Shown: one piece after another, positions 6,672-41,489 of the stretch | Numbering within the stretch: position 1 is the first letter of the stretch | Layout: each line of letters opens with the position of its first letter | From: Deinococcus sp. | GTDB lineage: Bacteria > Deinococcota > Deinococci > Deinococcales > Deinococcaceae | Direction: 5' to 3' | Assembly (NCBI RefSeq): GCF_965247185.1 | Contig: NZ_CBDFHA010000001.1 | Coordinates: forward strand, 50,215-114,214 | DNA length: 64,000 nt | Notes under the pieces: generated by a model | Database searches by the model: none | Told to the model about the DNA's origin: nothing | The model's input: only the letters and a program-made list of their open reading frames with translations | Program-made: the position numbers and the translations under genes

Positions 6672-8015
6672 ATGAAGAAGATACACCTCCTGTTCCTCCC
6701 CCTCAGCGTCCTGCTCCTGAACGCCTGCTCTTCTACTCCCAGCGATCTCGGCGCATTTTCGGGAAACCAACCCGGACAGGTCGCGCCGAGGTATGACTAC
6801 CTCGCCACCTTCACGGTCCAGGCCGGCGATACGCCCGCTTCACTCCAGGCTGCCTCCGGCGGCAAGCTGGTCGGCTGGAACGGGGCAGACTGCGCCGCAA
6901 CCAGTTCCTGTCAGGCCGTGATCGGTCTCAACCGGGGGCTGACGACCCTCAGCGTCTCGACCCTGGAGACCCAACTGCGCCGCAGCGTGACCCTGGAAGC
7001 GAACCGAGATCAGTTCAGTGCCGGCGGCGCGGTCACCGCCACCATCGGCGGCACGCGGGCCACCTGGGCCGACGGAAGTCTGCTGGCCTGGACCGGCGGC
7101 ACGCGGGCGACCTGGGCCGACGGCCAGTACAAGCCCATCCCTCAGAATTCCCAGACCTGGAACACCATTCGCTTGCAGCAGGCTCAGTCACTCGCCCCGA
7201 ACCTGGGGGCAGGCGTCACGGTGGCGGTCATCGACACCGGACTCGACCTGACGCACCCGGCTTTCCAGGGTTCGCTGAGCGACCCTTCGACCTGGCAGGA
7301 CTATTACGCGGGCGACGCGGTGCCGCAGGACGAGGGCGTGCTGGGCACCGGGGGCTACGGTCACGGCTCCAATGTGGCCGGGATCATCCTTCAGATCGCT
7401 CCCCGCGCCAAGATCATGCCGATCCGGATTCTGGGGCCGGACGGCTCCGGCGACGTGCTGAACGTGGCCAAGGCGATCTCCTGGGCCACTGCCAAAGGGG
7501 CCACCATCATCAATCTCAGCTTGGGCAGCAGCAGTTCGTCCAGCGTCGTGCAGGACGCCATCAAAGCGGCCACTGCCAAGAACGTCGTGGTGGTGACCTC
7601 GGCTGGAAACGGCAACCTGGACAAGCTGACCTTCCCGGCTTCGCTCTCAAGTAGCTTCAGCAATCTGCTCAGCGTGGGTAGCGTGGACGCCAACGACGTG
7701 AAATCCAGCTTCTCGAACTACAGCAAGGATTTGGAAGTGATGGCCCCCGGTGAGAACGTTTATGCCCCGGCTCCCGGCAACCTGATGGCGGCCTGGAGCG
7801 GCACCAGCATGTCGGCTCCGATGGTGTCGGGCGGGCTGGCCCTGGCGCTTGGACAGCCGCTGAAGGTGTCGGTTTCCGGCCTGCTGCAAATCGGTGCGCG
7901 CAGCAGCTACAACATCTACGGTGTGCCGCTGAATGCGCCCTACATGGGCAAATTGGGCTTTGGCAGGCTGGACTTGGCCGCCTTCCTGACCCAGGCTCAG
8001 TCCGTCGAACCCTGA
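6672..8015 (+). CDS. S8 (subtilisin-like) serine peptidase, lipoprotein
   Basis: It has a lipobox (LLLNAC). The Asp/His/Ser catalytic motifs are AVIDTGLDLTHPAF, GHGSNVAGII and GTSMSAPMVSGG. Confidence 0.85.
   Translation: MKKIHLLFLPLSVLLLNACSSTPSDLGAFSGNQPGQVAPRYDYLATFTVQAGDTPASLQAASGGKLVGWNGADCAATSSCQAVIGLNRGLTTLSVSTLETQLRRSVTLEANRDQFSAGGAVTATIGGTRATWADGSLLAWTGGTRATWADGQYKPIPQNSQTWNTIRLQQAQSLAPNLGAGVTVAVIDTGLDLTHPAFQGSLSDPSTWQDYYAGDAVPQDEGVLGTGGYGHGSNVAGIILQIAPRAKIMPIRILGPDGSGDVLNVAKAISWATAKGATIINLSLGSSSSSSVVQDAIKAATAKNVVVVTSAGNGNLDKLTFPASLSSSFSNLLSVGSVDANDVKSSFSNYSKDLEVMAPGENVYAPAPGNLMAAWSGTSMSAPMVSGGLALALGQPLKVSVSGLLQIGARSSYNIYGVPLNAPYMGKLGFGRLDLAAFLTQAQSVEP
7047..7123 (+). repeat. 29-nt direct repeat (two copies, 48-nt period) encoding GGTRATWADG twice
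   Basis: ggcggcacgcgggcSacctgggccgacgg occurs at 7047-7075 and at 7095-7123, inside the pro-region of the S8 peptidase. Confidence 0.8.
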
Positions 8016-8037: not shown

Positions 8038-10125
8038 ATGACCGCCTCCTCTGACCTGCCAGCCAGCGAGGTGCCTCTGAGCGAGCGCGCCGTCCTGCTC
8101 AGGGCCGAGGCCGTCCGCGCGCTCGACGCACAGCCCCAGCGTGCGGTGCCCGCCGTGCAGGACTACCGCGCCTTCGCCGACCTCCATGTGCTGACGGCGG
8201 CGGGTGCCCACAGCCGCCTGCTCCTGGCCCAGGCGCTGCTGCAAGCCGATGAGCCTCGAACGGCGCTGGAAGCCGTTGTCGCCGCTGCCCAGCTCTACCG
8301 CGCGCAGCAGGACGCGCTGGGTGAGGCTCAGGCGTGGAGTCTGGCAGGCAAGATCCACCGGGGTCTTGGGGCGTTCGAGGCTGCCGAAGAAGCCTTGCAG
8401 CATGCCGTCGCGTTGGTGCAGCGAGGATCGACCCCTGCCGAGCAGCAGGCACACGCCAGCGCGCTGAACCAGCTCGCGGGCGTGCAGTTTCACCGGGGCG
8501 GGTCTGCCGAGGCGCTGCTTTCGCTGGAGCTGGCCCTGGGCGTGTATACGGCGCAGGCAAACGCTTCCGGGCAGGCGAGCTGCCTGACCAACATCGCCAC
8601 CATCCAGGACGCCCTTGGGCAATACCACGCGGCCATTCAGACCATCGGACGCGCCTACGCGCTCTACAAGACCCAGCTCCCGGAGCCGCGTTCGGAAGCC
8701 TTCATCCTCAATACGCTTGCCCGGCTTCACGCTTCCAGTCAGGACATCAAGCTGGCGACCGAGGTCGGGAGGTCGGCGCTGCTGGCGGCGCAGGCCAGTC
8801 AGGACGCCGTGCTGACGGCCACGACGCGGCTCAATCTGGGAACCTTCCACCTGCAAGCGGGGCAGTACGAATCTGCCGCCCTGCACCTTCAGGCAGCCCT
8901 GGAGGAGAGCCGGGCGCTGGAATACCGCGCCGGGGAACTCTCGACCCTCGACAGCCTGGGCATGCTGCATCAGCAGACCGGGCGAATGGCCGACGCCCGC
9001 GAGGCCTTCACCGAGGCGCTGGCGCTGGCCCTCGATCTGGAAGATACCCAGGGCGAACTGGACTCGCGGCTGCACCTGGCGACTGTTGACCTGCTGCTGG
9101 GCGACCTTGAAGCGGCTGAACAGCAGGTGAGGCGAGGCTTGGAGCTGTCGGTCAACGCTCACAGCCCGAAGGAAGAGGCCGAGGCCCACCGCATCCTGGC
9201 CGAACTCTTCGCGCGGCAGAGTGATTACCGCCGGGCCTTCGAGCACAGCCAGGAGCATCTGCGGGTGCGGGGGCAACTGTTCGATGTCGAGCGTGACCGG
9301 CAGACCCGCAATCTCAGCATTCAGTTCGAGGTTGAGCGCGTCAGGCATAACGCCGATGTCTCCCGGCTCCAGACCGAGACGGAGCAGCGTGCCCGCGAAC
9401 GCGCCGAACTGGTGGTGGTCGAGCGGACCGCCGAACTCGCGCGCGCTCAGCACGAGGTCGTGACGCGCCTGGCGCTGGCTGCCGAGTACCGTGACGACAC
9501 CACCGGAGCGCATACCAAGCGCGTCGGACAGGCGGCAGCCCGCATCGCCCGCGCTCTGGGCTGGTTGCCGGAACGCGCGGAGATTCTGGGCGTCGCGGCC
9601 CGCCTGCACGATGTCGGAAAGATCGGGATTCCCGACGCGGTTTTGCTCAAGGCCGGAAAACTGAGCGCCGAAGAATTCGAGCAGATGAAGACCCACACCC
9701 TGATCGGCGCGCGAATCCTGTCGGGAGGGCGCTCGGAACTGCTGCGCCTGGCTGAGGAGATCGCGCTGACGCACCACGAACGCTGGGACGGCAGCGGCTA
9801 TCCAAACGGCCTGCGTGCCGAACAGATTCCGCTAACGGGCCGAATCGTGGCGCTGGCGGACGTTTACGACGCGCTGACACAGGAGCGGCCCTACAAGCGG
9901 GCCTGGACGCCCCAGGAAGCGCTGAAGGAACTTCAGAGTCAGGCGGGCACCCACTTTGACCCGCTGATTGTTCAAACGGCCCTGCGTGTGCTTGCCGTCC
10001 CCGCGTCGGCACCGCCGCAACCACATCCTTCGGCACCAGGCGACCAACCGGAGCCAGGTCAGGACGACGCCCCAGCTCTGTCGGACGGCTGCCGTGAAGT
10101 CGACGCGGCTTCATGCGAAGAATGA
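8038..10125 (+). CDS. TPR-repeat / coiled-coil / HD-GYP domain protein (putative c-di-GMP phosphodiesterase)
   Basis: 695 aa. The N-terminal half has repeated TPR-like A/L-rich helices. The C-terminal part has RLHDVGKIGIPDAVLLK ... HHERWDGSGYPNGL, i.e. the HD and GYP signatures. Confidence 0.85.
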   Translation: MTASSDLPASEVPLSERAVLLRAEAVRALDAQPQRAVPAVQDYRAFADLHVLTAAGAHSRLLLAQALLQADEPRTALEAVVAAAQLYRAQQDALGEAQAWSLAGKIHRGLGAFEAAEEALQHAVALVQRGSTPAEQQAHASALNQLAGVQFHRGGSAEALLSLELALGVYTAQANASGQASCLTNIATIQDALGQYHAAIQTIGRAYALYKTQLPEPRSEAFILNTLARLHASSQDIKLATEVGRSALLAAQASQDAVLTATTRLNLGTFHLQAGQYESAALHLQAALEESRALEYRAGELSTLDSLGMLHQQTGRMADAREAFTEALALALDLEDTQGELDSRLHLATVDLLLGDLEAAEQQVRRGLELSVNAHSPKEEAEAHRILAELFARQSDYRRAFEHSQEHLRVRGQLFDVERDRQTRNLSIQFEVERVRHNADVSRLQTETEQRARERAELVVVERTAELARAQHEVVTRLALAAEYRDDTTGAHTKRVGQAAARIARALGWLPERAEILGVAARLHDVGKIGIPDAVLLKAGKLSAEEFEQMKTHTLIGARILSGGRSELLRLAEEIALTHHERWDGSGYPNGLRAEQIPLTGRIVALADVYDALTQERPYKRAWTPQEALKELQSQAGTHFDPLIVQTALRVLAVPASAPPQPHPSAPGDQPEPGQDDAPALSDGCREVDAASCEE
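9445..9987 (+). other. HD-GYP domain (approximate boundaries)
   Basis: Covers about aa 470-650 of the 8038-10125 product: AEYRDDTTGAHTKRV ... HDVGK ... HHERWDGSGYP ... DVYDALT. Confidence 0.75.
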
Positions 10126-13790: not shown

Positions 13791-14436
13791 GCGACCTCCG
13801 AAGACCGCGCGGCGCACCGTCGGCCTTCTGCCTTCACCTTAGAGACTGCAACTCTTTCTTATATCTATCATCATTGGTCGATTGCTCATGATTGCTCATC
13901 TGGCGGTGGCTCGCTGGGGTGGCCTGCCACGTCCTAGCGAGAGGCTCCGCGAATCACCCGCGCTGAGTGGAAATCCCTGAACGTCCTCACTCAGTCGGAA
14001 AAGTCCTCAAACGAGCCTTTAACTGCTTCGCACTAACGTGATTTAGTTCTAAAACCTTCTGGAGTTCAACCTGGCGCTGCCTCCGCCCGCCTTCATTCCT
14101 CTCAGGTCGCAGGTGTAGGTCCCGTCAGCGCAAGGCGGGACTTTGATCGGGCCTCGGCTCCCCAGCAATTCGGCAGGTCTGCCTGCTGTCTGACCGATAT
14201 GACGGTCATGGAGGTGACGAAAACGACGTCTGGGCGGGCATGCTTCTCAATTTTCCTTTTATGTGAGCGCGAGCAGTCCAGCAGGCGGATGAGAGTACCC
14301 CCGACGAAACTCAAAAAGACACACAGCGTTCACATGGCGGCGTCAGATTGACATCAAGGAAAGGGGGCTTGGGTGTGCGGCACAGCCACGCCAGCGATAC
14401 GTCGAGCGCCTCGCCCTACCAACAGGAGGAACAGGA

Positions 14437-15807
14437 ATGCTCAGATCACGTGTTGTCTCTTCCCTCGCTCCATTTGCGCTGCTGACCCTGGCGCTGGTCT
14501 CGTGTGGAGGCCCGCTGACGCCGGTCAGCTCCGCGCCCCAGACCAGCCCGTCCAGCGCTCAAATCATCACCGTCAATGTGCGTCCTCAGACCAGCGAGGC
14601 CGACCTGCTCAGCCGTTACCCCGGCGGCCAGGTGCTCGCGCTGCACGCCGACGAGGGCTACGCCCAGTTGCTGCTGAGCGCCGACGCCCTGAGCCGCCCG
14701 GTCATCGGCACCCTCAGCCTGAACGCCCAGTCTCTGAGCGTCGCGGCCAGCGAACCTGATCTTCTGCTCACAGCAGGCGATACGGCTCCTGCCAGCGCGT
14801 CCACGGCCAGCCTCCAGACGCTGGGTCTGGACGATCCCGAAGCGCAGGGCAACAGTGCCTGGGCCGGCGGTAACAGTGCCTGGGCGGGAGGCAACAGTGC
14901 CTGGGCGGGGGGCCTGAGCAGCGGCCCCTTCACGACTCTCAAAGAGAATCTGGGGCTGTGGAACCTGGTCAATCTCAGCAGCGGTCAGACAATGGCTCCC
15001 GCGCTGGGTAAGGGTGTGCGCGTGGCGGTGCTGGATACCGGCGTGGATTTGAACCACCCAGCTTTTGCTGGGCACCTGGATACAGCGTCCGGCTGGGATT
15101 ACGTCGGCAACGACAATGTTGAGCAGGACGAGCCGGGCAAAAGCCCCGGTTTGAGCAAGGCCTACGGACACGGCACCGCTGTGGCGGGTGTGATCTTGCA
15201 GGTCGCCCCGAATGTCACCATCGTTCCGTTTCGCGTGCTCAGCCCCGATGGTTCCGGCAGCCTTTCGAACATCATCATGGCCGTGAACGACGCTGTGAAG
15301 AGCAATGTCAAGGTCATCAACATGTCGCTCGGCACGGTTACGCCTTCCGCCGCTCTCAATGCCGCCATCACCAGCGCCATCAGGAAGGGCATCATGGTGG
15401 TCGCCAGCAGCGGCAATTCAGGCGACGAAAACGTGACCTACCCTGCGCGCTCCTCAATCGAGATGCAGGTAAGCCTGGGTGGCGGACTGATCGGGGTCGC
15501 CAGCGTCAACAAGGATGACATGAAGTCCAGCTTCTCGACCTATGGCCTGGGTATCGACCTGCTGGCCCCCGGCGAGTCGGTGGCGACGGCCTTCCCGAAC
15601 AATCAGCGCACCAACGCCACCGGCACCTCGTTCGCTGCGCCCATCGTAAGCGGCGCGGTGGCTCTGGCGATCTCTGCCGGACGCACCGACGTGATCGCGC
15701 TCTACAAGAGCCTCAAGCTGAGTGCGATGGCCCCCATGGACTTCAATTATATGAGCAAGTTGGGCAACGGCACGCTCAATGTCGCCAAGTTGATGGTGAC
15801 AAAATGA
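14437..15807 (+). CDS. S8 (subtilisin-like) serine peptidase, lipoprotein; paralog of 6672-8015
   Basis: It has a lipobox (LVSCG). The catalytic motifs are AVLDTGVDLNHPAF, GHGTAVAGVI and GTSFAAPIVSGA. An AGGAGG RBS precedes the ATG. Confidence 0.85.
   Translation: MLRSRVVSSLAPFALLTLALVSCGGPLTPVSSAPQTSPSSAQIITVNVRPQTSEADLLSRYPGGQVLALHADEGYAQLLLSADALSRPVIGTLSLNAQSLSVAASEPDLLLTAGDTAPASASTASLQTLGLDDPEAQGNSAWAGGNSAWAGGNSAWAGGLSSGPFTTLKENLGLWNLVNLSSGQTMAPALGKGVRVAVLDTGVDLNHPAFAGHLDTASGWDYVGNDNVEQDEPGKSPGLSKAYGHGTAVAGVILQVAPNVTIVPFRVLSPDGSGSLSNIIMAVNDAVKSNVKVINMSLGTVTPSAALNAAITSAIRKGIMVVASSGNSGDENVTYPARSSIEMQVSLGGGLIGVASVNKDDMKSSFSTYGLGIDLLAPGESVATAFPNNQRTNATGTSFAAPIVSGAVALAISAGRTDVIALYKSLKLSAMAPMDFNYMSKLGNGTLNVAKLMVTK
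14848..14910 (+). repeat. 3 x 21-nt tandem repeat encoding (G)NSAWAGG three times
   Basis: The units are ggcaacagtgcctgggccggc / ggtaacagtgcctgggcggga / ggcaacagtgcctgggcgggg, in frame within the pro-region of the second S8 peptidase. Confidence 0.9.
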
Positions 15808-33754: not shown

Positions 33755-35503
33755 TCACTCGCCTTTGGGCAGAGAAAAGCGCAGGGTGCTGCCTTCGTCG
33801 AGTCTGCCTTCCGCCCAGACTTCGCCGCCATGTCGCTCGATGATGCGCCGCACGTTGGCCAGGCCCACGCCATTTCCCTCGAACTCCGTCTCGCGGTGGA
33901 GTCGCTGAAACATGCCGAAGAGTCGGTGCGTATAGCGCGGATCAAAGCCTACGCCATTGTCCCGCACATGCACCAGCCAGGCCCTGGGGAGTTCCTCGGC
34001 CCACAGTTCGATACGGGCCGGCTGGCGGGGGCGGCTGTATTTCAGGGCGTTTCCAAGCAGGTTCGTCAGCACCAGGCGAAGCAGGGTGGCGTCCCCCGGC
34101 ACAGTCGGCAACTCCCCGACGATCCACTGCACCTCGCGTCCGGCGATGTCCTGAGCCAGGTCAGCCCGAACGGCCCCGACCAACCTGGAGAGATCCACGG
34201 GTTGACGATCCAGCGGCTGCTGCGCGGTTCTGGAAAAGGCCAGCAACACGTCGATCATGCCGTTCATACGCAGCGCCGACGACTTGACCACCCCCAGGTG
34301 CCGCTGGGCGCGCTCGTCCAGCCGCTGCTCCAGCTCCTTTCCCAGCAATTCGGTGAAGCCCAGGATATGCCGCACCGGGGTTCTCAGGTCGTGCGAGATC
34401 GACAGGGCGAAGGCGTCGAGTTGCTCGTTGGCCGCTTCCAGTTTGCGGCGTTCCGTGGCAACCTGCTCCAGGGTGTCCGCACGTTCCAGTGCCAGCGTCA
34501 GGTTGAAGACGGACGTTTCCAGCAGCGCCCGGTCTATCACAGACCAGCGCCGCTGCTCAAACAGTCCCACACAGAACACCCCGGCGGGTTGTCCGTGGAC
34601 CAGCACCGGCAGGGACGCGGCGGCTTTGACGTGCCGGATGGTCTCAGCCGGGGTGTCCGCTCCCTGGTCATACTGCTCCTGATAGAACGGCTCCAGGCTG
34701 ACGAAGGGCTGCCGCAGGCTCTGGGACTCATAGGGAAGGCCCTGATCGACCACCGCCTGGAGTTCTTCGTTGCCCAGATCGCCCACCTGCGACGTCAGCC
34801 GCCAGCGTCCGGCGTCGAGTTCGAAGTAGGCCGCGTATCCGGGCGGCAGCAGCCGCAGGACGATCTTCTGGGCCGAGCGCACCAGCGTCGGTCGGTCGGT
34901 TTCCATGGTCAGGTCGCGGGTGAGCTGGGCAAAGGCTTCCAGCGCCCGGTTGCGAATCTCGACCTCCGCAGAGCGCAACTGCAAGGCCTCGGCTGCGACC
35001 TTGAGCCGCTGCTCGGCCAGTACCTGCGCCGTCGTTTCCGTCACCGTTACCAGGATGCCGCCCACCTCGCCGTCGTCCCGCACCGGGCTGTAGCAGAGGG
35101 TGAAATAGGCCTGTTCCAGGACGCCGTCGCGGGTGATGGGATAGAGCTGGTTCTCGAAGTAGTAGGTTTCGCCGCGCCGCGTTCCGGCATACAGCGGCTC
35201 GTTGATATGCCAGACCTCGGGCCAGACTTCCCGGGTGGGTCGGCCCACGGCCTCGGGATGCCTGGCCCCCAGAATCACCGCGTAGCCGTCATTGTAGAGC
35301 TGGATCAGCTCCTCGCCCCACAGCACGATCATCGGAAAGGCGCTGGACAGCACCAGCTCCACCACCGTACACAAACTCCTCGGCCACGTTTTCACCGGGC
35401 CGAGCGGCGTCGAGGCCCAGTCGATAGACCGCAGGAGCCGCGCCGCCTCACTCGGGCCGGAAAAGGGGGCAGAGTGGGCGAACGGATCGGAAGCGGCGGT
35501 CAT
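33755..35503 (-). CDS. cytoplasmic sensor histidine kinase (PAS - GAF - HisKA - HATPase_c)
   Basis: SIDWASTPLGPVKTWPRSL (PAS_4-type N-terminus), a GAF-like middle region, the H-box ISHDLRTPVRHILGF, N/G boxes NLLGNALKY and GNGVGLANV, and no TM segment. The start is uncertain: ATG at 35503, ATG at 35599, or TTG at 35611. Confidence 0.8.
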   Translation of the reverse strand: MTAASDPFAHSAPFSGPSEAARLLRSIDWASTPLGPVKTWPRSLCTVVELVLSSAFPMIVLWGEELIQLYNDGYAVILGARHPEAVGRPTREVWPEVWHINEPLYAGTRRGETYYFENQLYPITRDGVLEQAYFTLCYSPVRDDGEVGGILVTVTETTAQVLAEQRLKVAAEALQLRSAEVEIRNRALEAFAQLTRDLTMETDRPTLVRSAQKIVLRLLPPGYAAYFELDAGRWRLTSQVGDLGNEELQAVVDQGLPYESQSLRQPFVSLEPFYQEQYDQGADTPAETIRHVKAAASLPVLVHGQPAGVFCVGLFEQRRWSVIDRALLETSVFNLTLALERADTLEQVATERRKLEAANEQLDAFALSISHDLRTPVRHILGFTELLGKELEQRLDERAQRHLGVVKSSALRMNGMIDVLLAFSRTAQQPLDRQPVDLSRLVGAVRADLAQDIAGREVQWIVGELPTVPGDATLLRLVLTNLLGNALKYSRPRQPARIELWAEELPRAWLVHVRDNGVGFDPRYTHRLFGMFQRLHRETEFEGNGVGLANVRRIIERHGGEVWAEGRLDEGSTLRFSLPKGE

Positions 35504-35835
35504 AGCAGTCACCCTAAGATAAGGGCTGGGATTATTAGACAGCACCCCGCTGGCCTTGGGGATGGGTTCAGACTGGCGAGCGGTCCTGGGATGTTCCATA
35601 CAGCGCGGCAATTCGCCACCGTCAATGAAGTCGGCGACCCGGTTTTAAGATTGCTCTAGCCTCACTGAGGGATAGGGCAGGCGACTTTATGTCTGCCCTC
35701 CCGAGAGTTCCTTCGCCCCATTCATATGGTTACTCAGGGGCGTCACCGACTCTTACCTTATAAAGCAATCAATCAGTGCGGTGGCTTGGTTGGCTCGGTG
35801 CTGCTTGACAGACCCTGCTGGAACGGTGCCGCGTG

Positions 35836-38800
35836 CTAGAAACAGACCCGGTCGCGGCCAGAGTTTTTGGCCTCGTACAGCTTGGTATCGGCGCGCGCGA
35901 TCAGGCGCTCGTGGTTGGGAACATTGAGGTCGGAGACCACGCCGATGGAGAGCGTCACTTGGAGGCCGGGATGCACCTGATCCCAGCCGTAGCCGCGCAC
36001 GGCGGCCTGAATCCGCTCGCAGACCCGGCGTCCCTGCTCCAGCGTGGTGCCGGGAAAGACGAACAGGAACTCCTCGCCGCCGTAGCGCCCCACCGCGTCG
36101 CTGGGGCGGCAGGTCTGGGTAAAAATCTGCGCCACCAGCCGCAGCACCTGATCGCCGACCAGATGAGAAAAGCGGTCGTTGATGAGCTTGAAGTGGTCGA
36201 GATCGACCATGGCGATGCACAGGAGCTGAGCCGACGATTTCTGCTGCCAGAACTCGTGCTGCAAGAGGCCCTCGATGTGCTTGCGGTTGTACAGCCCGGT
36301 CAGGCCGTCCTCGGAGAGCTGGCGCTGGAGCAGCTTGGACTGGCTCTCCAGCATGTTCACCAGGCCGCTCTTCTCGACGTTGGCCCGTGCCAGGGCCTCG
36401 TTGGCGCTGGCGAGTTCGATGCTGCGCAGCTTGTAGATCTGGGCGTCCGACTGTGCCCGCTCGACTTCGAGCTGTACCATCAGCGCCCGCGTCTTCAAGG
36501 AGGCTTCCTGATTGAAGATGTCCAGCTCGACGGCGTGATGCCGGCGGTAGTAGTCCAGCGCGCGCTCGGCGTCCCCGGCGGCAGCGCTCAGTTCCGAGAG
36601 ACTGCGGTAGGCCTGCATCTCCAGCTCCTTGACGCTCAGCTCCTGTGCCAAGCCCAGCGCGGCCAGGTAGTCCTGCTGGGCCTGCGGGTTGCCGCGTTTC
36701 TGACGGACCTGCCCGAGTTCGTACAGACTCCAGGCCCTCATCTGCTGGTATCCGGCCTCGCTGGCATAGATCAGTGCCCGCTGCTGCAAGGTTTCGGCCA
36801 GTTCGTCCTGGCCCAGTCGGCTGTGGGCCTTGCCCGCCGTGGACTGGGCCAGCGCCTCGATGTAGGGCTGGGCGTGACTGCGGGCCTGCTGCGCGGCGCG
36901 GTCAGCCAGCCGGATGCACAGCTCGTCGTCGCCCTGTTCAAAGGCCAGCTCGGCGTGGGTGCCCAGCGCCTTGGTCTCGCCCACCATGTCGCCGATCTCG
37001 CGGTAGACCGTCAGGCTCTCGACCAGGTAGCTGCTGGCCTTGTCCAGCGAGCGGCTGTCCTTGCTGACGATGGCCAGGTTGTGCAGACAGTGGGCCTCGC
37101 GTTGCCGGTTTTGCTGTTCGCGGGCGATCCGCAGCACCGTGGAAAGCTGATCCAGGGCCTTATCGTAGTCCGAGAGCGCGTTGTAGACCCCGGCCATGAA
37201 GTTGGCGCAGTCGGCCTGAAGGCTCAATTGACCGTGGGCGACGCCGATGTCCAGGCCACGGACAAAGTGCCCCAGCGCCTGTTCGAAGGCCGACGACATG
37301 AAGCGGAAAAACCCGACGTTGCGGTGTGCCAGACCCAACAGCAATTCGTCGCCGCCTTTCTCGGCGCGGCGCAGAGCTTCCTCGGCCAGTTCCTCGGCCT
37401 CTTTGGGCTGGCTCTGTCGCAGGTGCCAGGCCCGCTCGATCAGCTCGGCCAACAGATGATCGCTGGCCGGCAGCGGCAAGCTGGACGGCGGCTGGCGCTC
37501 CGGCAGCGTCAGCGCCGACGCGCGCGGCTGAAACAGCCCTTCGAGCGAGCTGAGGTTGGAGGTGATCAGGGCGGTGAGGGAGGTGATGAGCTGCGGATCG
37601 AACTGCATGCCCGACTGAGTCTGCATCTCGCGCAGCGCTTCTTCCACGCTCCAGGCCGGTTTGTAGAGCCGCGCGGTGGTCAGCGCGTCGAAGACGTCGG
37701 CCACCGCCACCACCCGGCCCGACACCGGAATGGCCTCGCCCGCCAGCCCTTTGGGGTAGCCGCGCCCGTCCCAGCGCTCGTGGTGGGTGCGGGCGATCTC
37801 CTCGGCCATCTGGAGCAGCGGCGCGGTGCTGCCTTCCAGCACCTTGGCCCCGATGACCGTATGGGTCTTCATGCGCTCGAATTCCTCGGGGGTGTAGCGC
37901 CCCGGCTTCAGCAGCACGCTGTCGGGCACGCCGATCTTGCCGATATCGTGCAGCCGCGCCGCCCAGCGGATCAGATCGACCGTCTCGGGCGGCAGCCCGA
38001 TGGCCTGGGCCAGGTGGCCCGCCAGCTCGCCGACCCGCCTGGTGTGCTGGCCGGTCTCGTCGTCGCGGTACTCGGAGGCCATGCCCAGCCGGGTGACCAG
38101 CTCGATCTGGGCGGCCTCCAGCTCGGCGGTTCTGACCCGCACGGTCTCCTCGGCCTGAAGGCGGGCGGCCTGCGAGACCTCGCCCATCTTGCGGTACATG
38201 TCGGCCTCGTGACGCGCCCGTTCGGCCTCGAAGCGGGCCGTCAGGGTCTGGACCCGGCGCTCGCCATTCTCGTCGAACAACTTGCCGGCCAGCTCCTGAT
38301 AGGCGCGCAGATGCTGGAAGGCCGTCGCCAGATCGCCGACCTCCTCGAAGCCCAGATACAGCGCCTGGTGCAGCTCCAGCGCCGACTGCCGCAGGTTGTG
38401 CGACAGCGCGGTGTCCAGCGCCTCTTGCAGCAGCGCCCTCGCCGCGTCGATGGCCCCCTGTTTGAAGCGCAGGCGTCCCAGACTGAGCTGGGCGTTGACC
38501 CGGCCCTGGAGGTCGCCGGTCTCCAGCGACTGCCGCAGCGATTGTCCGAACAGCTCGTCGGCCTGCGCGTCGTCGCCCATGTCGCTGTAGACCTGGCCCA
38601 GGTTGTCGGTCAGGTCGATCAGTTCCTGCGGATTGGAGGTCTGGGCCAGCCGCAGGCCGCGCGTCAGGGTCTCGACGGCCAGCGAGTACTGCCCCTGGGC
38701 CTTGTAGACCAGCCCGAGCTGGCTGAGGGCCGAGAGCTGGGTGTCGATGTCTCCGCTCTGCACCGACAGCTCCAGGCCGGGCAACAGATAATCGAGCGCC

Positions 38801-39291
38801 TGAGTAAACTGGCGCAGCGACAGGTAGGTGTGCCCGATATTGACCAGGCAGGCGGCGCGCAGTTCGGCGGGCACGTCGGCATACTGCATCGAGAGCTGCT
38901 GGCACTGGAACAGCGTGGTGAGCGCCTCGGCGTGGTCGCCCAGCGTGGCGTACAGCAGCCCCAGATTGCTCAGGCACTCGACCTCGCCCACCCAGTCGCC
39001 CAGCCGCGCGCGCACCTCGACCTCCTGACGCAGCAGTTCCAGCGCCCGCAGATACTGGCCCCGGCGCTGTTCGGCGGTGATGGCATACGACAGCCCTTCG
39101 GCCAGGGCCGCGTCGTCGCCGCGCTCGGCGGCCAGCGCCAGGAGTCTGGCCGCCACCTCGGCCAGCGCGTCGTCATTGCCCTGGGCGCGCAGGTCGCGGG
39201 CCTTCTGGGCCAACGCCTGCAACGTCTCCGACAGGCCGGAGCGCTCGGCTGCGCGCGACTCCAGGGGCGGTGGATGGTCGGCCTGGGTCAT
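35836..39291 (-). CDS. 1151-aa TPR / HD-GYP / TPR / GGDEF multidomain c-di-GMP turnover protein
   Basis: The HD-GYP part is RLHDIGKIGVPDSVLLK ... HHERWDGRGYPKGL. The C-terminal GGDEF domain is MVDLDHFKLINDRFSHLVGD ... RPSDAVGRYGGEEFLF, with both the RxxD I-site and GGEEF intact. TPR-like repeats precede both catalytic domains. The start forms an ATGA overlap with the upstream gene. Confidence 0.85.
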   Translation of the reverse strand: MTQADHPPPLESRAAERSGLSETLQALAQKARDLRAQGNDDALAEVAARLLALAAERGDDAALAEGLSYAITAEQRRGQYLRALELLRQEVEVRARLGDWVGEVECLSNLGLLYATLGDHAEALTTLFQCQQLSMQYADVPAELRAACLVNIGHTYLSLRQFTQALDYLLPGLELSVQSGDIDTQLSALSQLGLVYKAQGQYSLAVETLTRGLRLAQTSNPQELIDLTDNLGQVYSDMGDDAQADELFGQSLRQSLETGDLQGRVNAQLSLGRLRFKQGAIDAARALLQEALDTALSHNLRQSALELHQALYLGFEEVGDLATAFQHLRAYQELAGKLFDENGERRVQTLTARFEAERARHEADMYRKMGEVSQAARLQAEETVRVRTAELEAAQIELVTRLGMASEYRDDETGQHTRRVGELAGHLAQAIGLPPETVDLIRWAARLHDIGKIGVPDSVLLKPGRYTPEEFERMKTHTVIGAKVLEGSTAPLLQMAEEIARTHHERWDGRGYPKGLAGEAIPVSGRVVAVADVFDALTTARLYKPAWSVEEALREMQTQSGMQFDPQLITSLTALITSNLSSLEGLFQPRASALTLPERQPPSSLPLPASDHLLAELIERAWHLRQSQPKEAEELAEEALRRAEKGGDELLLGLAHRNVGFFRFMSSAFEQALGHFVRGLDIGVAHGQLSLQADCANFMAGVYNALSDYDKALDQLSTVLRIAREQQNRQREAHCLHNLAIVSKDSRSLDKASSYLVESLTVYREIGDMVGETKALGTHAELAFEQGDDELCIRLADRAAQQARSHAQPYIEALAQSTAGKAHSRLGQDELAETLQQRALIYASEAGYQQMRAWSLYELGQVRQKRGNPQAQQDYLAALGLAQELSVKELEMQAYRSLSELSAAAGDAERALDYYRRHHAVELDIFNQEASLKTRALMVQLEVERAQSDAQIYKLRSIELASANEALARANVEKSGLVNMLESQSKLLQRQLSEDGLTGLYNRKHIEGLLQHEFWQQKSSAQLLCIAMVDLDHFKLINDRFSHLVGDQVLRLVAQIFTQTCRPSDAVGRYGGEEFLFVFPGTTLEQGRRVCERIQAAVRGYGWDQVHPGLQVTLSIGVVSDLNVPNHERLIARADTKLYEAKNSGRDRVCF
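35839..36324 (-). other. GGDEF domain of the 1151-aa protein (approximate)
   Basis: About aa 990-1151: LTGLYNRKHIEG...DLDHFKLIND...GGEEF...SIGV. Confidence 0.75.
37597..38109 (-). other. HD-GYP domain of the 1151-aa protein (approximate)
   Basis: About aa 395-565: SEYRDDETGQHTRRV...HDIGK...HHERWDGRGYP...DVFDALT. Confidence 0.75.
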
Positions 39292-41282
39292 GGTCGAGAG
39301 CCTCCTGGCTCGTCATGCTGGGTCTTGGAGAGGTCGGCGGGCGGCGGGGCGGCGCTGCCGCTTTCCAGCCGTTCCAGCGCCAAGCGCAGCAGCTCCGAGG
39401 GCTGCGCGGCCTCATCCGGCGAGCTGGCATGCCCCAGCCGCAGGGAGTCGGCGGCGGGCTGCTCCCGCATGAGCCGGGCTGCCAGCGCGTCGAGCCGGGA
39501 GATCATGGCTCCCTGCTCTCCCGGCTCGTGCGAGCGTACCAGCGTGACCAGCAGCGCGCCGCCCAGCCGGTAGACCCGGTCCTCCAGCCGTAGGGCGGCG
39601 CGCAACTCGCCGGCCAGCGCCCGGATCAGGTCGTTGCCCGCCGCAAAGCCCAGCCGGGCATTGAGCGTCCTGATGTCGGCGATCTCGAAGAGGCTCAGGG
39701 TCAGGGCGCTGCGGTGGCGCTGGCTGTACGACAATTCGCTGCTCAGGTCGCTCAGCAGCGCGCGGCGGTTGGGCAACTCGGTCAGCTCGTCGTTCAGGGC
39801 CGCCCGCTCGATCATCAGGGTCTGGCGCTGGCGTTCAAAGGCCAGCCCGAAGGCGTGCGCCCCCGCCTCCAGCAGCCCCAGATGGCCACCCTCTACCTGG
39901 ATGGAGGGCGAAGAGCTGTCCGCGACGCCGGGCGTTTCCAGGTACAGCGCGTGGACTTCGGGCAGTCCCGACCCGACCGGGATCAGCAGCACCTGGCCTC
40001 CCCCCGGCAACGGCGCGCTGCGGGTCGGAATGCGCGCCGGAATATGCAAGTGGGCCGCAGCGGGGGCGATATCCACTGAACGCAGCAGCAGGGCCGCGAC
40101 GGCGGCGGCGCTCGCCTCGCCTTGCAGCGCGCTGGTCAGTTCGCGCCCGTCCGGAGCGTGGGCGGCCACACAGCTCAGCCCGCCCGTCCGCAGTCGCCAC
40201 AGCGAGCAGGCTGGGGCACCCGCCAGCCGTGCCAGCCTGCTCAGGCCCAGCGACAGCACCTCGGACAGGCTCCCGGCCCCGGCCAAAGTCTGCGCCAGCT
40301 CGTAGAGTGCCTCCAGATCGGCGTTGGCCCGCGCCAATTCCAGCGTGCGCACCTGCACCCGTCCCTCCAGATCGGCGTTCAGGCTGCGGACCTCGCGCTC
40401 GGCCTCCTGACGCCGCTGAATCTCGCCGTTAAGCCGTAGCGCCGGATTGACCAGCCCCGCCACCGCGTCCAGAACCGATTTGACCTCCAGCGGCCAGCCG
40501 TTCGGGCCTGCCGCCCCCCAGAAGGCCAGCAGCGCCCACGGCCCCTCGGCAGCGTCTCCGGTGCCCAGCGGTACCAGGGCCAGGTCGTCACGGCTCGCCA
40601 GCGTGCGGCCCTCGGCGTGTACGCCCCCTGGCGGCAGGGCCAGGCCCGCCGAGGGGCCGGCGTGGGCGGGCCGCCCAGGGGCCGGGAGCGCCCACAGCGA
40701 GACCCCGCGCACGCCGTAGGTCTCGCGCAGCAGCTCATACACATCCGCAATGATACGCGCTGAATCGGTCACCTGAAGGATGCGCTGGGCCAGCCGGGTC
40801 AGCAGCCGCGCCTCGGGCGGCAAGCGCTTCAGGTGCGGCTGCGCAACATTGGCCGAGTCGGGCAGCGGGCAGCGGTAGCCCAGGCCGCGCACGGTCTCGA
40901 TGGCCTCCGGCCCCAGTTTGCTGCGCACCCGCTTGACGTAGGTGTCGATGACGCGGTCGTCTCCCCTGAACTCCAGCCCCCACAGCCGCTCCAGGATGTC
41001 GTCCCGGCTAAACAGCCGCCCGCGCGACACGAACAGCAGCTCGATCAGCAGGTATTCCTTGCTGGTCAGGGCGATCCTCTGGCCGTCCAAAAAGGCGCTA
41101 CGTTCCTGCGGGTCGATGTCCAGACTGTGTGACCCGCCAACCGAACGGCGCATCCGGGCCGCCGCGTCCGGCTGGCTCGGCGGAGTGGCCGTCTGGGCAG
41201 CGGCGATCACGCGGCGCGTCTCCAACATCCGTGGGTCTGAGCCGGGAGCGCCCGGTGCGTCCGCCTGGATGGTGCCAGCCAC
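39288..41282 (-). CDS. OmpR/PhoB-type winged-helix DNA-binding domain fused to GAF-like regions and a degenerate GGDEF domain
   Basis: Trans_reg_C-like N-terminus: LTSKEYLLIELLFVSRGRLFSRDDILERLWG...RVIDTYVKRVRSKL...VRGLGYRC. No receiver domain is seen. The C-terminus is GGDEF-like (LTELPNRRALL...), but GGDEF is replaced by GGALL while RLED (RxxD) sits 5 residues upstream. The start is uncertain (GTG at 41282 or an internal ATG). Confidence 0.7.
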   Translation of the reverse strand: MAGTIQADAPGAPGSDPRMLETRRVIAAAQTATPPSQPDAAARMRRSVGGSHSLDIDPQERSAFLDGQRIALTSKEYLLIELLFVSRGRLFSRDDILERLWGLEFRGDDRVIDTYVKRVRSKLGPEAIETVRGLGYRCPLPDSANVAQPHLKRLPPEARLLTRLAQRILQVTDSARIIADVYELLRETYGVRGVSLWALPAPGRPAHAGPSAGLALPPGGVHAEGRTLASRDDLALVPLGTGDAAEGPWALLAFWGAAGPNGWPLEVKSVLDAVAGLVNPALRLNGEIQRRQEAEREVRSLNADLEGRVQVRTLELARANADLEALYELAQTLAGAGSLSEVLSLGLSRLARLAGAPACSLWRLRTGGLSCVAAHAPDGRELTSALQGEASAAAVAALLLRSVDIAPAAAHLHIPARIPTRSAPLPGGGQVLLIPVGSGLPEVHALYLETPGVADSSSPSIQVEGGHLGLLEAGAHAFGLAFERQRQTLMIERAALNDELTELPNRRALLSDLSSELSYSQRHRSALTLSLFEIADIRTLNARLGFAAGNDLIRALAGELRAALRLEDRVYRLGGALLVTLVRSHEPGEQGAMISRLDALAARLMREQPAADSLRLGHASSPDEAAQPSELLRLALERLESGSAAPPPADLSKTQHDEPGGSRP
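39363..39800 (-). other. degenerate GGDEF domain with retained RxxD (approximate)
   Basis: About aa 495-640. The DxDxFKxIND region reads EIADIRTLNA, and the signature reads RLED-RVYRL-GGALL. Confidence 0.65.
40869..41129 (-). other. winged-helix (Trans_reg_C-like) DNA-binding domain (approximate)
   Basis: About aa 52-138 of the 39288-41282 product. Confidence 0.65.
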
Positions 41283-41489
41283 CCTGAATCCGGGAGGATC
41301 GGGGCCGCTAGCTTCGGTGGAGACGCGGGAGGAACGGTCATGGGGAGGGGCAGGGCGCTGGCTGGGAAGAGGTCTGACTTCGTCCGGCGCTCCGTGCTTA
41401 AAGTATGCTCATCAAGCCTGACAGAATCCCGACGAACGCTGAGCAGGCTCTGAGGCTTTAGTATACGGGCCACTGGCCCGGCTGTCGGC

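Follow-up and report, generated by a model that had tools for sequence, protein, structure and literature searches.

A Deinococcus winged-helix protein with a degenerate GGDEF domain and a retained inhibitory site: a candidate c-di-GMP-responsive transcription factor

Genomic locus

In the genome of a Deinococcus species (assembly GCF_965247185.1), we analysed a stretch of 64,000 nucleotides (contig NZ_CBDFHA010000001.1, positions 50,215 to 114,214; hereafter the window) in which a reverse-strand gene at 39288..41282 encodes a predicted DNA-binding protein fused to a candidate receptor domain for cyclic diguanylate (c-di-GMP). In this protein, hereafter the regulator, the open reading frame (ORF), Pfam matches and a structure model delineate a winged helix, a GAF domain, a long helix, a second GAF domain and a degenerate GGDEF domain. 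The gene immediately downstream on the same strand (35836..39291) encodes its partner, a protein of 1151 amino acids with the order TPR, HD-GYP, TPR and GGDEF according to Pfam and an alignment of orthologs. The two genes overlap by the tetranucleotide ATGA, which joins the stop codon of the regulator gene to the ATG of the partner gene and has an AGGAGG sequence 9 nt upstream. A third gene, on the forward strand at 14437..15807, encodes an S8 subtilase, orthologous to those encoded next to the pair in other genomes (60.6% identity to the S8 protein of a related locus, L108), and is the predicted target of the regulator.

Counted from its GTG start, the regulator comprises 664 amino acids. The true start is uncertain, because public gene calls for the same ORF give proteins of 640 and 646 amino acids, with starts 18 or 24 codons later; in an alignment of 33 family members, the conserved part begins only at about residue 52. 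All residue numbers below refer to the 664-residue version, and all features of the regulator lie on the reverse strand.

Domain architecture of the regulator

The N-terminal domain (residues 54-137, 40872..41123) is an OmpR/PhoB-type winged helix, which matches Pfam Trans_reg_C (PF00486) at residues 67-137 with an E-value of 1.4e-22 and 79.9 bits against a cut-off of 26.2; its closest solved sequences are DNA-binding domains of GlnR. Just about 50 poorly conserved residues precede it, and Pfam gives no Response_reg match up to E 1, in agreement with the original prediction, made from the DNA sequence without database searches, which had described a Trans_reg_C domain lacking a receiver. As no receiver was found, the regulator is not classed as an OmpR-family response regulator. 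Pfam likewise yielded no match to BTAD, the mark of the SARP regulators, and listed neither PF17853 nor PF13556 of the PucR family at E up to 1. Among the NCBIfam models, the GGDEF model TIGR00254 was the sole one to exceed its cut-off (56.4 versus 37.4 bits); the response-regulator and cyclase equivalogs all remained far under theirs, and those for response regulators matched by their C-terminal parts only.

The remainder of the protein was interpreted with the help of a structure model of residues 45-664, computed from a 37-row alignment (A2), with a mean predicted local distance difference test (pLDDT) score of 83.6 and a predicted template modelling (pTM) score of 0.51. In this model, a soluble GAF domain comes directly after the winged helix, which contrasts with the membrane-segment layout of CadC/ToxR, although no dedicated transmembrane prediction was run. 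This first GAF domain (residues ~149-256, 40515..40838) has variable loops and is supported by its own model, by structure comparison and by GAF leads from a protein atlas. Modelled alone from 19 sequences (alignment A3), it reached a pLDDT of 83.4, and a comparison with 48,161 solved chains using VIA-align returned a best Z-score of 11.7 (4g3k); the 50 matches listed reach down to 8.3, and most of them are GAF domains or the GAF part of phytochromes. A continuous helix of about 70 residues (265-334, 40281..40490; H221-290 in the numbering of the model, by DSSP) joins the two GAF domains and probably forms a dimer coiled coil. The second GAF domain with its exit helix (residues ~339-496, 39795..40268) gives a weak Pfam GAF match at residues 339-475 (E 0.018, 16 bits, under the cut-off of 22.4). 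It shows the alpha/beta pattern in the model, the relatives P0051 and P0041 have GAF or GAF_3 matches (GAF_3 at E 1.4e-6 in P0051), and the profile of the family matches a GAF-GAF-GGDEF protein (P0065). A PDB sequence search with the middle region returned nothing, the best E-value being 0.87. Thus, the two GAF-like stretches noted in the original prediction are borne out, the first by the structure comparison and the second by the weak Pfam match, the matches of relatives and the model.

The C-terminal degenerate GGDEF domain (residues ~506-641, 39360..39767) matches PF00990 at residues 496-640 (E 3.9e-17, 62.9 bits versus a cut-off of 23.8). In Foldseek comparisons, it superimposes on many isolated GGDEF domains with a root-mean-square deviation of 2.6-3.9 Å and TM-scores of 0.69-0.78, normalised to the isolated domains. 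With the whole chain, the best Foldseek matches are the phytochrome-linked diguanylate cyclases 5llw (E 1e-14) and 6et7 and the GAF-GGDEF cyclase Dcsbis (4zmu). PadC (5llw) and Dcsbis (4zmu) resemble the regulator in having tandem GAF-type sensors, a long helix and, at the C-terminus, a GGDEF domain, but they are active enzymes without a DNA-binding domain, and only the domain order is common to them and the regulator, because the whole-length TM-scores are low (0.2). Collectively, the model, Pfam and the structure comparisons give the layout winged helix, GAF, long helix, GAF, GGDEF.

A dead active site and a retained inhibitory site

The original prediction held that RLGGALL stands in place of the catalytic signature of the GGDEF domain, that the metal- and substrate-binding region has diverged from DxDxFKxIND, and that an RLED motif five residues before the signature occupies the inhibitory site (I-site). 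Each of these statements withstood alignment. In HMMER alignments, GGALL lies under the GGDEF/GGEEF of solved cyclases, and RLED lies under RESD of TpbB (7a7e/4iob) and RPED of Dcsbis (4zmm), that is, at the I-site position; a placement elsewhere had been named by the prediction as speaking against it. The segment in question, RLEDRVYRLGGALL (residues 565-578), maps to 39549..39590, in agreement with the original prediction, and contains the I-site RxxD (R565 and D568) and, after it, what is left of the GG(D/E)EF loop. Further downstream, R596 (codon at 39495..39497) aligns with a conserved arginine in the helix that follows the GGDEF hairpin in Dcsbis and in the partner (R1093, invariant in 17 of 17 orthologs). 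We take R596 to be the third I-site residue, presumably equivalent to R390 of PleD.

For comparison of the active site, 21 family members were aligned with the GGDEF domains of 19 partner enzymes. Relative to the latter, the first metal-binding Asp of the regulators is replaced by Glu, FK by IR, the GD of the guanine-binding loop by GN (or GS), and GGEEF by GGALL, NGATF, SGATF or NNGMY, whereas YxAK..GR near the C-terminus is gone; the functional roles of these active-site (A-site) positions in binding metal, guanine and phosphate are assumed here after the PleD and WspR literature. At the signature position, 19 of 19 loci read [GNS]GA[LVT][LVF], whereas P0043 has SGATF and P0051 has NNGMY. 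By contrast, RxxD is kept in 21 of 21 members, and R565 and D568 account for two of just 14 invariant columns among 173. E567 has one exception among the 21 members, and position 596 is arginine in 20 and lysine in one. Even in the most diverged member, P0051 of D. deserti, where the domain scores only 21 bits as GGDEF, RKQD is followed five residues on by NNGMY. The c-di-GMP-making half of the domain has thus decayed in every lineage, whereas the inhibitor-binding part has not. Judged by its sequence, the regulator is not an active diguanylate cyclase, the signature, metal and phosphate residues being lost. The dead domain has the sequence features of an I-site receptor of the PopA/PelD/SgmT type, which supports its standing as a candidate c-di-GMP receptor.

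Distribution of the regulator and linkage to the partner enzyme

We detected the regulator in a single genus, Deinococcus by the source names, where 24 of 111 genomes encode it, and in none of 14 genomes from seven other genera (125 genomes in total); the 24 comprise 21 genomes detected with the protein query and diverged copies in G067, G072 and G023. A word-indexed search of 5.8 billion proteins retrieved 33 full-length relatives, all containing PF00486 and PF00990 and, where named, all from Deinococcus. An exhaustive profile search of 1.84 billion cluster representatives retrieved only eight full-length relatives, the source names of which are generic (e.g., "winged helix-turn-helix domain-containing protein"). 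A search for related loci found no relative with the protein and, with the family alignment, only generic OmpR-family loci of other phyla, which were not used.

Some members deviate from the common layout. The regulator of G023 (L158, G023:C2:1-12000) is without the first GAF domain, as tblastn matches residues 71-150 and then 310-629, and it still belongs to a regulator-partner-S8 module. In P0051 (700 aa) and P0043 (751 aa), the winged helix is preceded by an N-terminal extension of about 130 residues, to which no Pfam family, and thus no receiver, matched even at E 10. The absence of a receiver is accordingly claimed for the protein of the window, P0051 and P0043 having these extensions; the only pointer to a degenerate-receiver ancestor is the source name of P0051, putative (OmpR) response regulator.

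The partner contains HD_5 (HD-GYP) at residues 409-568 and GGDEF at residues 995-1148, together with TPR repeats (Pfam). The HD, H..HHE, GYP, D-x-D-HFK-IND, RxxD, GGEEF and K..GR motifs are invariant or nearly so in 17 orthologs, and since the HD, GYP and GGEEF motifs are kept, both catalytic domains of the partner look functional. This, together with the overlap read at the ATGA, upholds the prediction that a bifunctional enzyme is encoded directly downstream. Full-length partners (E = 0, 51-77% identity) are present in 23 genomes and, with a split copy in G099, coincide exactly with the 24 genomes that encode the regulator. Weaker paralogs of the partner are widespread, with matches at E <= 1e-100 in 75 of the 125 genomes.

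In 23 of the 24 genomes, the regulator and partner genes are neighbours on one strand: in the window, in all 18 loci fetched, in G067, G072 and G023 and, judged by coordinates, in G085; in G090, they lie on different small contigs. In 17 of 19 loci, a partner start codon falls within the interval from 19 nt ahead of the last nucleotide of the regulator stop codon to 2 nt past it, the other two loci not having been resolved by our script, and seven of those 17 display the 4-nt overlap of start and stop. Two assemblies, represented by L109 (G099:C2) and L121 (G091:C275), have a partner gene broken into two frames, with open frames of 874 and 476 codons and two tblastn pieces, owing to a frameshift or else to a sequencing error. 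In the window, the partner gene is followed directly by a gene for a PAS-GAF-HisKA-HATPase histidine kinase (33755..35611, reverse strand); it had no match above 60 bits in 18 related loci and was for this reason not counted as part of the module.

An S8 subtilase gene and a predicted operator

In 13 of 18 loci, and likewise in G067, G072 and G023 (16 of 21 checked), a Peptidase_S8 gene of the same orientation comes directly after the partner gene. The spacers upstream of the S8 genes are otherwise unalignable but share a tandem repeat, AAGTCACAC-RGC-AGTCACAC, with two GTCAC half-sites 11 bp apart. The repeat, GTCAC-N6-GTCAC, lies at the -35 position and ends about 8-14 nt before a -10-like hexamer. 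A matrix was built from eight sites of other genomes, the window being excluded, and both strands of the 3.83-Mb genome were scanned. The predicted operator of the window, AAGACACACAGCGTTCACATGG (14316..14337, forward strand), which has two GTCAC-like half-sites 11 bp apart, was the best of 28 matches of at least 12 bits genome-wide, with 23.6 bits versus 19.4 for the next. Its start lies 121 nt upstream of the ATG of the S8 gene, and the end of its second half-site, TTCACAT, is 8 nt away from a -10-like CAGATT that follows. The N-terminus of the window's S8 protein, read by eye, resembles a lipoprotein signal peptide, and a triple tandem GNSAWAG repeat was observed in its pro-region (residues ~147-168).

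In 30 genomes, the region upstream of the best S8 homolog was scanned next, a tandem site being counted if it reached at least 16 bits on the strand of the gene. Such a site was present in 18 of 23 genomes with the regulator-partner cassette, including 10 of the 15 left out of the matrix, at 95-152 nt (299 nt in one case) upstream of the estimated S8 start; it should be noted that these counts do not represent independent trials, since the genomes compared are related. None of the seven genomes without the cassette had the site (best 8.6 bits), their best S8 match probably being a paralog. The tandem site is also present where the S8 gene is not beside the pair (G000, G036, G042, G064, G075 and G112).

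The winged helix itself offers a parallel for such a site. In a PDB sequence search, 83 solved chains matched, and among the 60 listed most are OmpR-family DNA-binding domains. For residues 53-149, the best solved matches are 8hml (E 5e-15), 8hig and 8hih (E 9.2e-14), of which 8hml and 8hih are identified as GlnR DNA-binding domains in the available text of PMC10235972. According to the same portion of that article, GlnR recognises the sites gTnAc and GaAAC (consensus GTAAC), with six bases between them, at promoters whose -35 element is non-optimal, and its residues R186 and R194 hydrogen-bond to guanines. In our alignment, RTVDVHVRR of GlnR lies over RVIDTYVKR of the regulator, and by our own mapping the counterparts of R186 and R194 are R110 and R118, each invariant in the 33-member alignment. 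GTCAC-N6-GTCAC is hence the kind of site bound by GlnR, the closest characterised relative, although this parallel lends only modest support, because other OmpR-family domains score nearly as well (RstA, 2e-14). Weighing these data, we lean slightly towards the S8 promoter being a direct target of the regulator.

Similar repeats were encountered elsewhere in the genus. The rigid pattern GTCACRBNNNNKTCACAY was considered as a genome-wide co-occurrence test and rejected as too common, being found in 55 of the 111 genus genomes. In G058, which has no cassette, four GTCACG..CAGTCACAC repeats occupy -35-like positions within 23 kb (L152, G058:C11:68000-86000; L153, G058:C11:86000-100000), near genes for a peptide-binding protein, a multicopper oxidase and cupredoxin proteins. 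They lie from 6.7 kb upstream to 11.1 kb downstream of a gene for a 1188-residue BTAD + AAA_16 (SARP/AfsR-like) regulator and probably represent a separate winged-helix regulon. Half-sites of this type are evidently in use by further winged-helix regulators in these bacteria. Furthermore, the site GTCACAG-(A/G)(A/G)(G/T)T-GTCACAT occurs once per genome in G003, G008, G013, G017, G044, G051, G056 and G059, most of them without the cassette, and may be another conserved operator.

The association of S8 proteases with TPR-HD-GYP proteins extends beyond the cassette. Among 102 S8 matches, 58 are located within 3 kb of one of 120 partner-like matches on the same contig (39 genomes), and 56 of these 58 are on the same strand. 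The window itself contains a second pair of this kind, without a regulator, at 6672..8015 and 8038..10125 (both forward strand). This pattern suggests a general partnership of proteases and c-di-GMP enzymes in the Deinococcaceae. Since the S8 gene pairs with the TPR-HD-GYP gene family-wide even where the regulator is lacking, the protease may feed back on the TPR sensor and so close a loop.

Upstream region of the regulator gene

No S8-type site was found upstream of the regulator gene, the best score in 19 loci being 9.1 bits, and autoregulation through such a site is therefore not supported. Instead, a different 18-bp conserved element, CTKACAGATTTCTCWCAY, is found there on the opposite strand; allowing up to two mismatches, 12 of 18 loci have it, and each of these loci, 11-16 kb long, has it at this position alone (L104, L105, L107, L108, L111, L114, L115 and L118-L121). 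Read by eye on the coding strand, it comprises a pair of TGTSAG-like half-sites with a spacing of 11 bp, which lie about 11 nt ahead of a -10-like hexamer. The copy in the window, TCTGTCAGG-N8-GCATACT (41402..41425, reverse strand), is degenerate, with only the proximal half and GCATACT kept. Between the ABC permease gene and the regulator gene, a promoter-like CCGACA-17-TATACT (41460..41488, reverse strand) was recognised by its match to the consensus only. In one of the related loci, we also observed an IMP dehydrogenase gene of 917 codons (L118:1828-4581, reverse strand) with a Hom_end_hint (intein) match inside the IMPDH domain.

Discussion

We propose a model in which the regulator is a one-component c-di-GMP-responsive transcription factor, and we give this model as a whole an even chance of being correct. 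As a cytoplasmic one-component factor, the regulator would form a parallel dimer through its GAF-helix-GAF stalk, like the cyclases that it resembles, and its GlnR-like winged helices would bind the tandem GTCAC half-sites, 11 bp apart, at the S8 promoter. The dead GGDEF domain would make no c-di-GMP but would hold the I-site formed by R565, D568 and R596. Product inhibition of PleD-type cyclases works through the I-site, and c-di-GMP bound there would likewise cross-link, lock or re-orient the two dead domains of the regulator. The change would travel along the stalk and determine whether the winged helices can dock head-to-tail at the repeat and bring in RNA polymerase. A second input may reach the protein through the two GAF domains, and the local c-di-GMP concentration would be set by the translationally coupled TPR-HD-GYP-GGDEF enzyme. 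The sign of regulation is not predictable as such; activation, suggested by the position of the site, is the most likely outcome, because the repeat replaces the -35 element, as for PhoB and GlnR. We infer c-di-GMP binding, the identity of the protein that binds the repeat, the sign of regulation and dimerisation from the comparisons described above. Taken one step further, the module would constitute a three-gene circuit confined to Deinococcus, in which the enzyme sets c-di-GMP, the factor reads it through the I-site and the exported S8 protease is activated; this fuller scheme is tentative, and we consider it rather more likely to need revision than to hold in every part.

The dead GGDEF domain can be understood in other ways. 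It might be a protein-contact module that dimerises the regulator or docks on the HD-GYP or GGDEF domain of the partner, so that the enzyme would act on the regulator through direct contact, in the manner of a trigger enzyme, with RxxD serving the interface or the fold. The strict co-occurrence, the adjacency and the start/stop overlap of the two genes suit a stoichiometric complex, and the long TPR arrays of the partner are typical protein-binding modules. Contacts between HD-GYP and GGDEF domains are said to occur in Xanthomonas. Trigger phosphodiesterases reportedly provide a precedent (PMC5052742). A complex of a cyclase and a regulator, DgcY/HhmR, is described in the accessible part of PMC12421958. 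We nevertheless regard a pure contact role as unlikely, albeit credible: it leaves unexplained why three I-site residues remain fixed while the active-site half decays in every lineage, and complex formation and ligand binding are in any case not mutually exclusive.

Alternatively, the signal, a small molecule or a redox cue, may enter through the GAF domains, the GGDEF domain being a vestige of a GAF-GAF-GGDEF cyclase or binding GTP or another nucleotide. Both GAF domains are well folded with conserved cores, the family profile matches an active GAF-GAF-GGDEF protein (P0065) over profile positions 107-592, and N541, presumably the guanine-contacting position, is kept in 20 of 21 members. However, the module is retained in G023, where the regulator is without the first GAF domain; an invariant RxxD would be surprising in a vestige, given that members are just 32-38% identical; and the phosphate- and metal-binding residues that GTP requires have been lost, so that we consider this explanation improbable. 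That the regulator is still a cyclase, with an unusual motif and an added DNA-binding domain, is hardly conceivable, given that all 21 members have A-L/V/T where GG(D/E)EF has its acidic residues and that the metal and phosphate positions are lost, even though the AGDEF cyclase VCA0965 is active despite its variant motif, as stated in the part of PMC3974145 available to us.

Several observations weigh against the receptor-regulator model and, in particular, against the S8 gene as its target. Because RxxD adjoins a core strand and the whole R-x-E-D-R-x-Y-R-L stretch is conserved, part of its invariance may be structural, and the low pTM of the structure model leaves the relative placement of the domains not established. 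The same genome encodes another candidate receptor, an ORF of 918 codons for a PilF-type ATPase with three MshEN domains (G000:C1:1783101-1784333, forward strand). The S8 gene of the window is displaced, at about 20 kb from the pair and on the other strand. Five cassette genomes have no tandem site on the strand of the gene, namely G014 (4.8 bits), G067 (-1.6), G072 (1.1), G023 (-0.7) and G038, the last of which has a site of 18.1 bits on the other strand only. By eye, G014, G067 and G072 show a GTCAYAA..TTGTGAC arrangement and G023 a single GTCACAA-type half-site; the regulators of these four genomes are the most diverged, with 32-34% identity. The rigid pattern mentioned above is far more frequent in the genus than its reversed-pattern control, and many of the genomes that have it lack the cassette; because the repeat is found elsewhere, as in G058, another winged-helix protein could own the S8 site. 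Finally, since S8 genes pair with TPR-HD-GYP genes in the absence of the regulator, the link to the protease may belong to the enzyme, the regulator being an addition of one clade.

Among known systems, PopA, PelD and SgmT are alike in having a dead GGDEF domain with RxxD five residues before the lost signature, but none of the three carries a DNA-binding domain. PelD combines a GAF domain with a dead GGDEF domain that has an I-site and is a membrane protein of a polysaccharide machine. PopA is an adaptor, and SgmT is a GAF-containing histidine kinase that needs a separate regulator, DigR, whereas the protein described here unites sensor, receptor and DNA-binding part in a single chain. PopA and its RxxD site are covered in the accessible portion of a review (PMC12564702). 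In Myxococcus xanthus, according to the part of PMC3509222 at hand, a GAF sensor and a c-di-GMP-binding GGDEF domain in SgmT act through DigR on genes for secreted proteins, including the fibA protease. SgmT/DigR is hence the nearest functional analogue, with its roles fused into one chain in Deinococcus. The differences are that SgmT/DigR is a two-component phosphorelay in which c-di-GMP sequesters the kinase, and that its protease is a metalloprotease rather than an S8 subtilase, whereas no kinase or receiver is involved here. With OmpR/PhoB activators such as GlnR, the regulator shares Trans_reg_C, but it has no receiver and no phosphorylation, and its winged helix is N-terminal, i.e., in the reverse order. 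A transcription factor with a non-catalytic GGDEF-fold domain has been described in the PucR family (MabR), and in the portion of PMC11617747 available, MabR has HGTWL and RHGR, hence neither an A-site nor an I-site motif, together with a C-terminal PucR-type helix-turn-helix and a globin; on these sequence features, the regulator does not belong to that family. Winged helix and GGDEF also coexist in one chain in uncharacterised proteins with the order REC-Trans_reg_C-Hpt-REC-GGDEF (P0136, P0139, P0144, P0167 and P0185), but these have a response-regulator head, Hpt, a second receiver, no GAF domain and GGDEF scores of 88-133 bits.

In a term search, the words "winged" and "OmpR" were absent from the text of the 2025 review of c-di-GMP effectors (PMC12564702). 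Our literature searches, which reach few subscription journals, found no paper on an architecture of winged helix, two GAF domains and dead GGDEF, consistent with the original prediction that it is not known as characterised. We conclude that the architecture is new and lineage-restricted.

The finding bears on c-di-GMP signalling in Deinococcus, a lineage that has gained GGDEF proteins and expanded its subtilisin-like proteases, as reported in the consulted part of Makarova et al. 2007 (PMC1978522). The genome studied here has 16 GGDEF, 7 HD-GYP and 2 EAL matches and no match to PilZ, and no paper on a c-di-GMP-controlled output in Deinococcus was found in our literature searches. If the proposed model is true, the regulator would represent the first class of transcription factors that senses c-di-GMP through the I-site of a GGDEF domain and would provide the first defined c-di-GMP output in Deinococcus. 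The system is a compact and testable case, in which the enzyme, the receptor, the predicted operator and the target gene are all named, and a predicted regulon this small, in which a single site stands out in 3.8 Mb, would recommend it as a clean model or as a portable switch. Should a dead cyclase prove able to drive a fused DNA-binding domain by means of its I-site, the known list of transcription factors would gain a new way of reading c-di-GMP, and the case would show how a product-inhibited cyclase can become a regulator.

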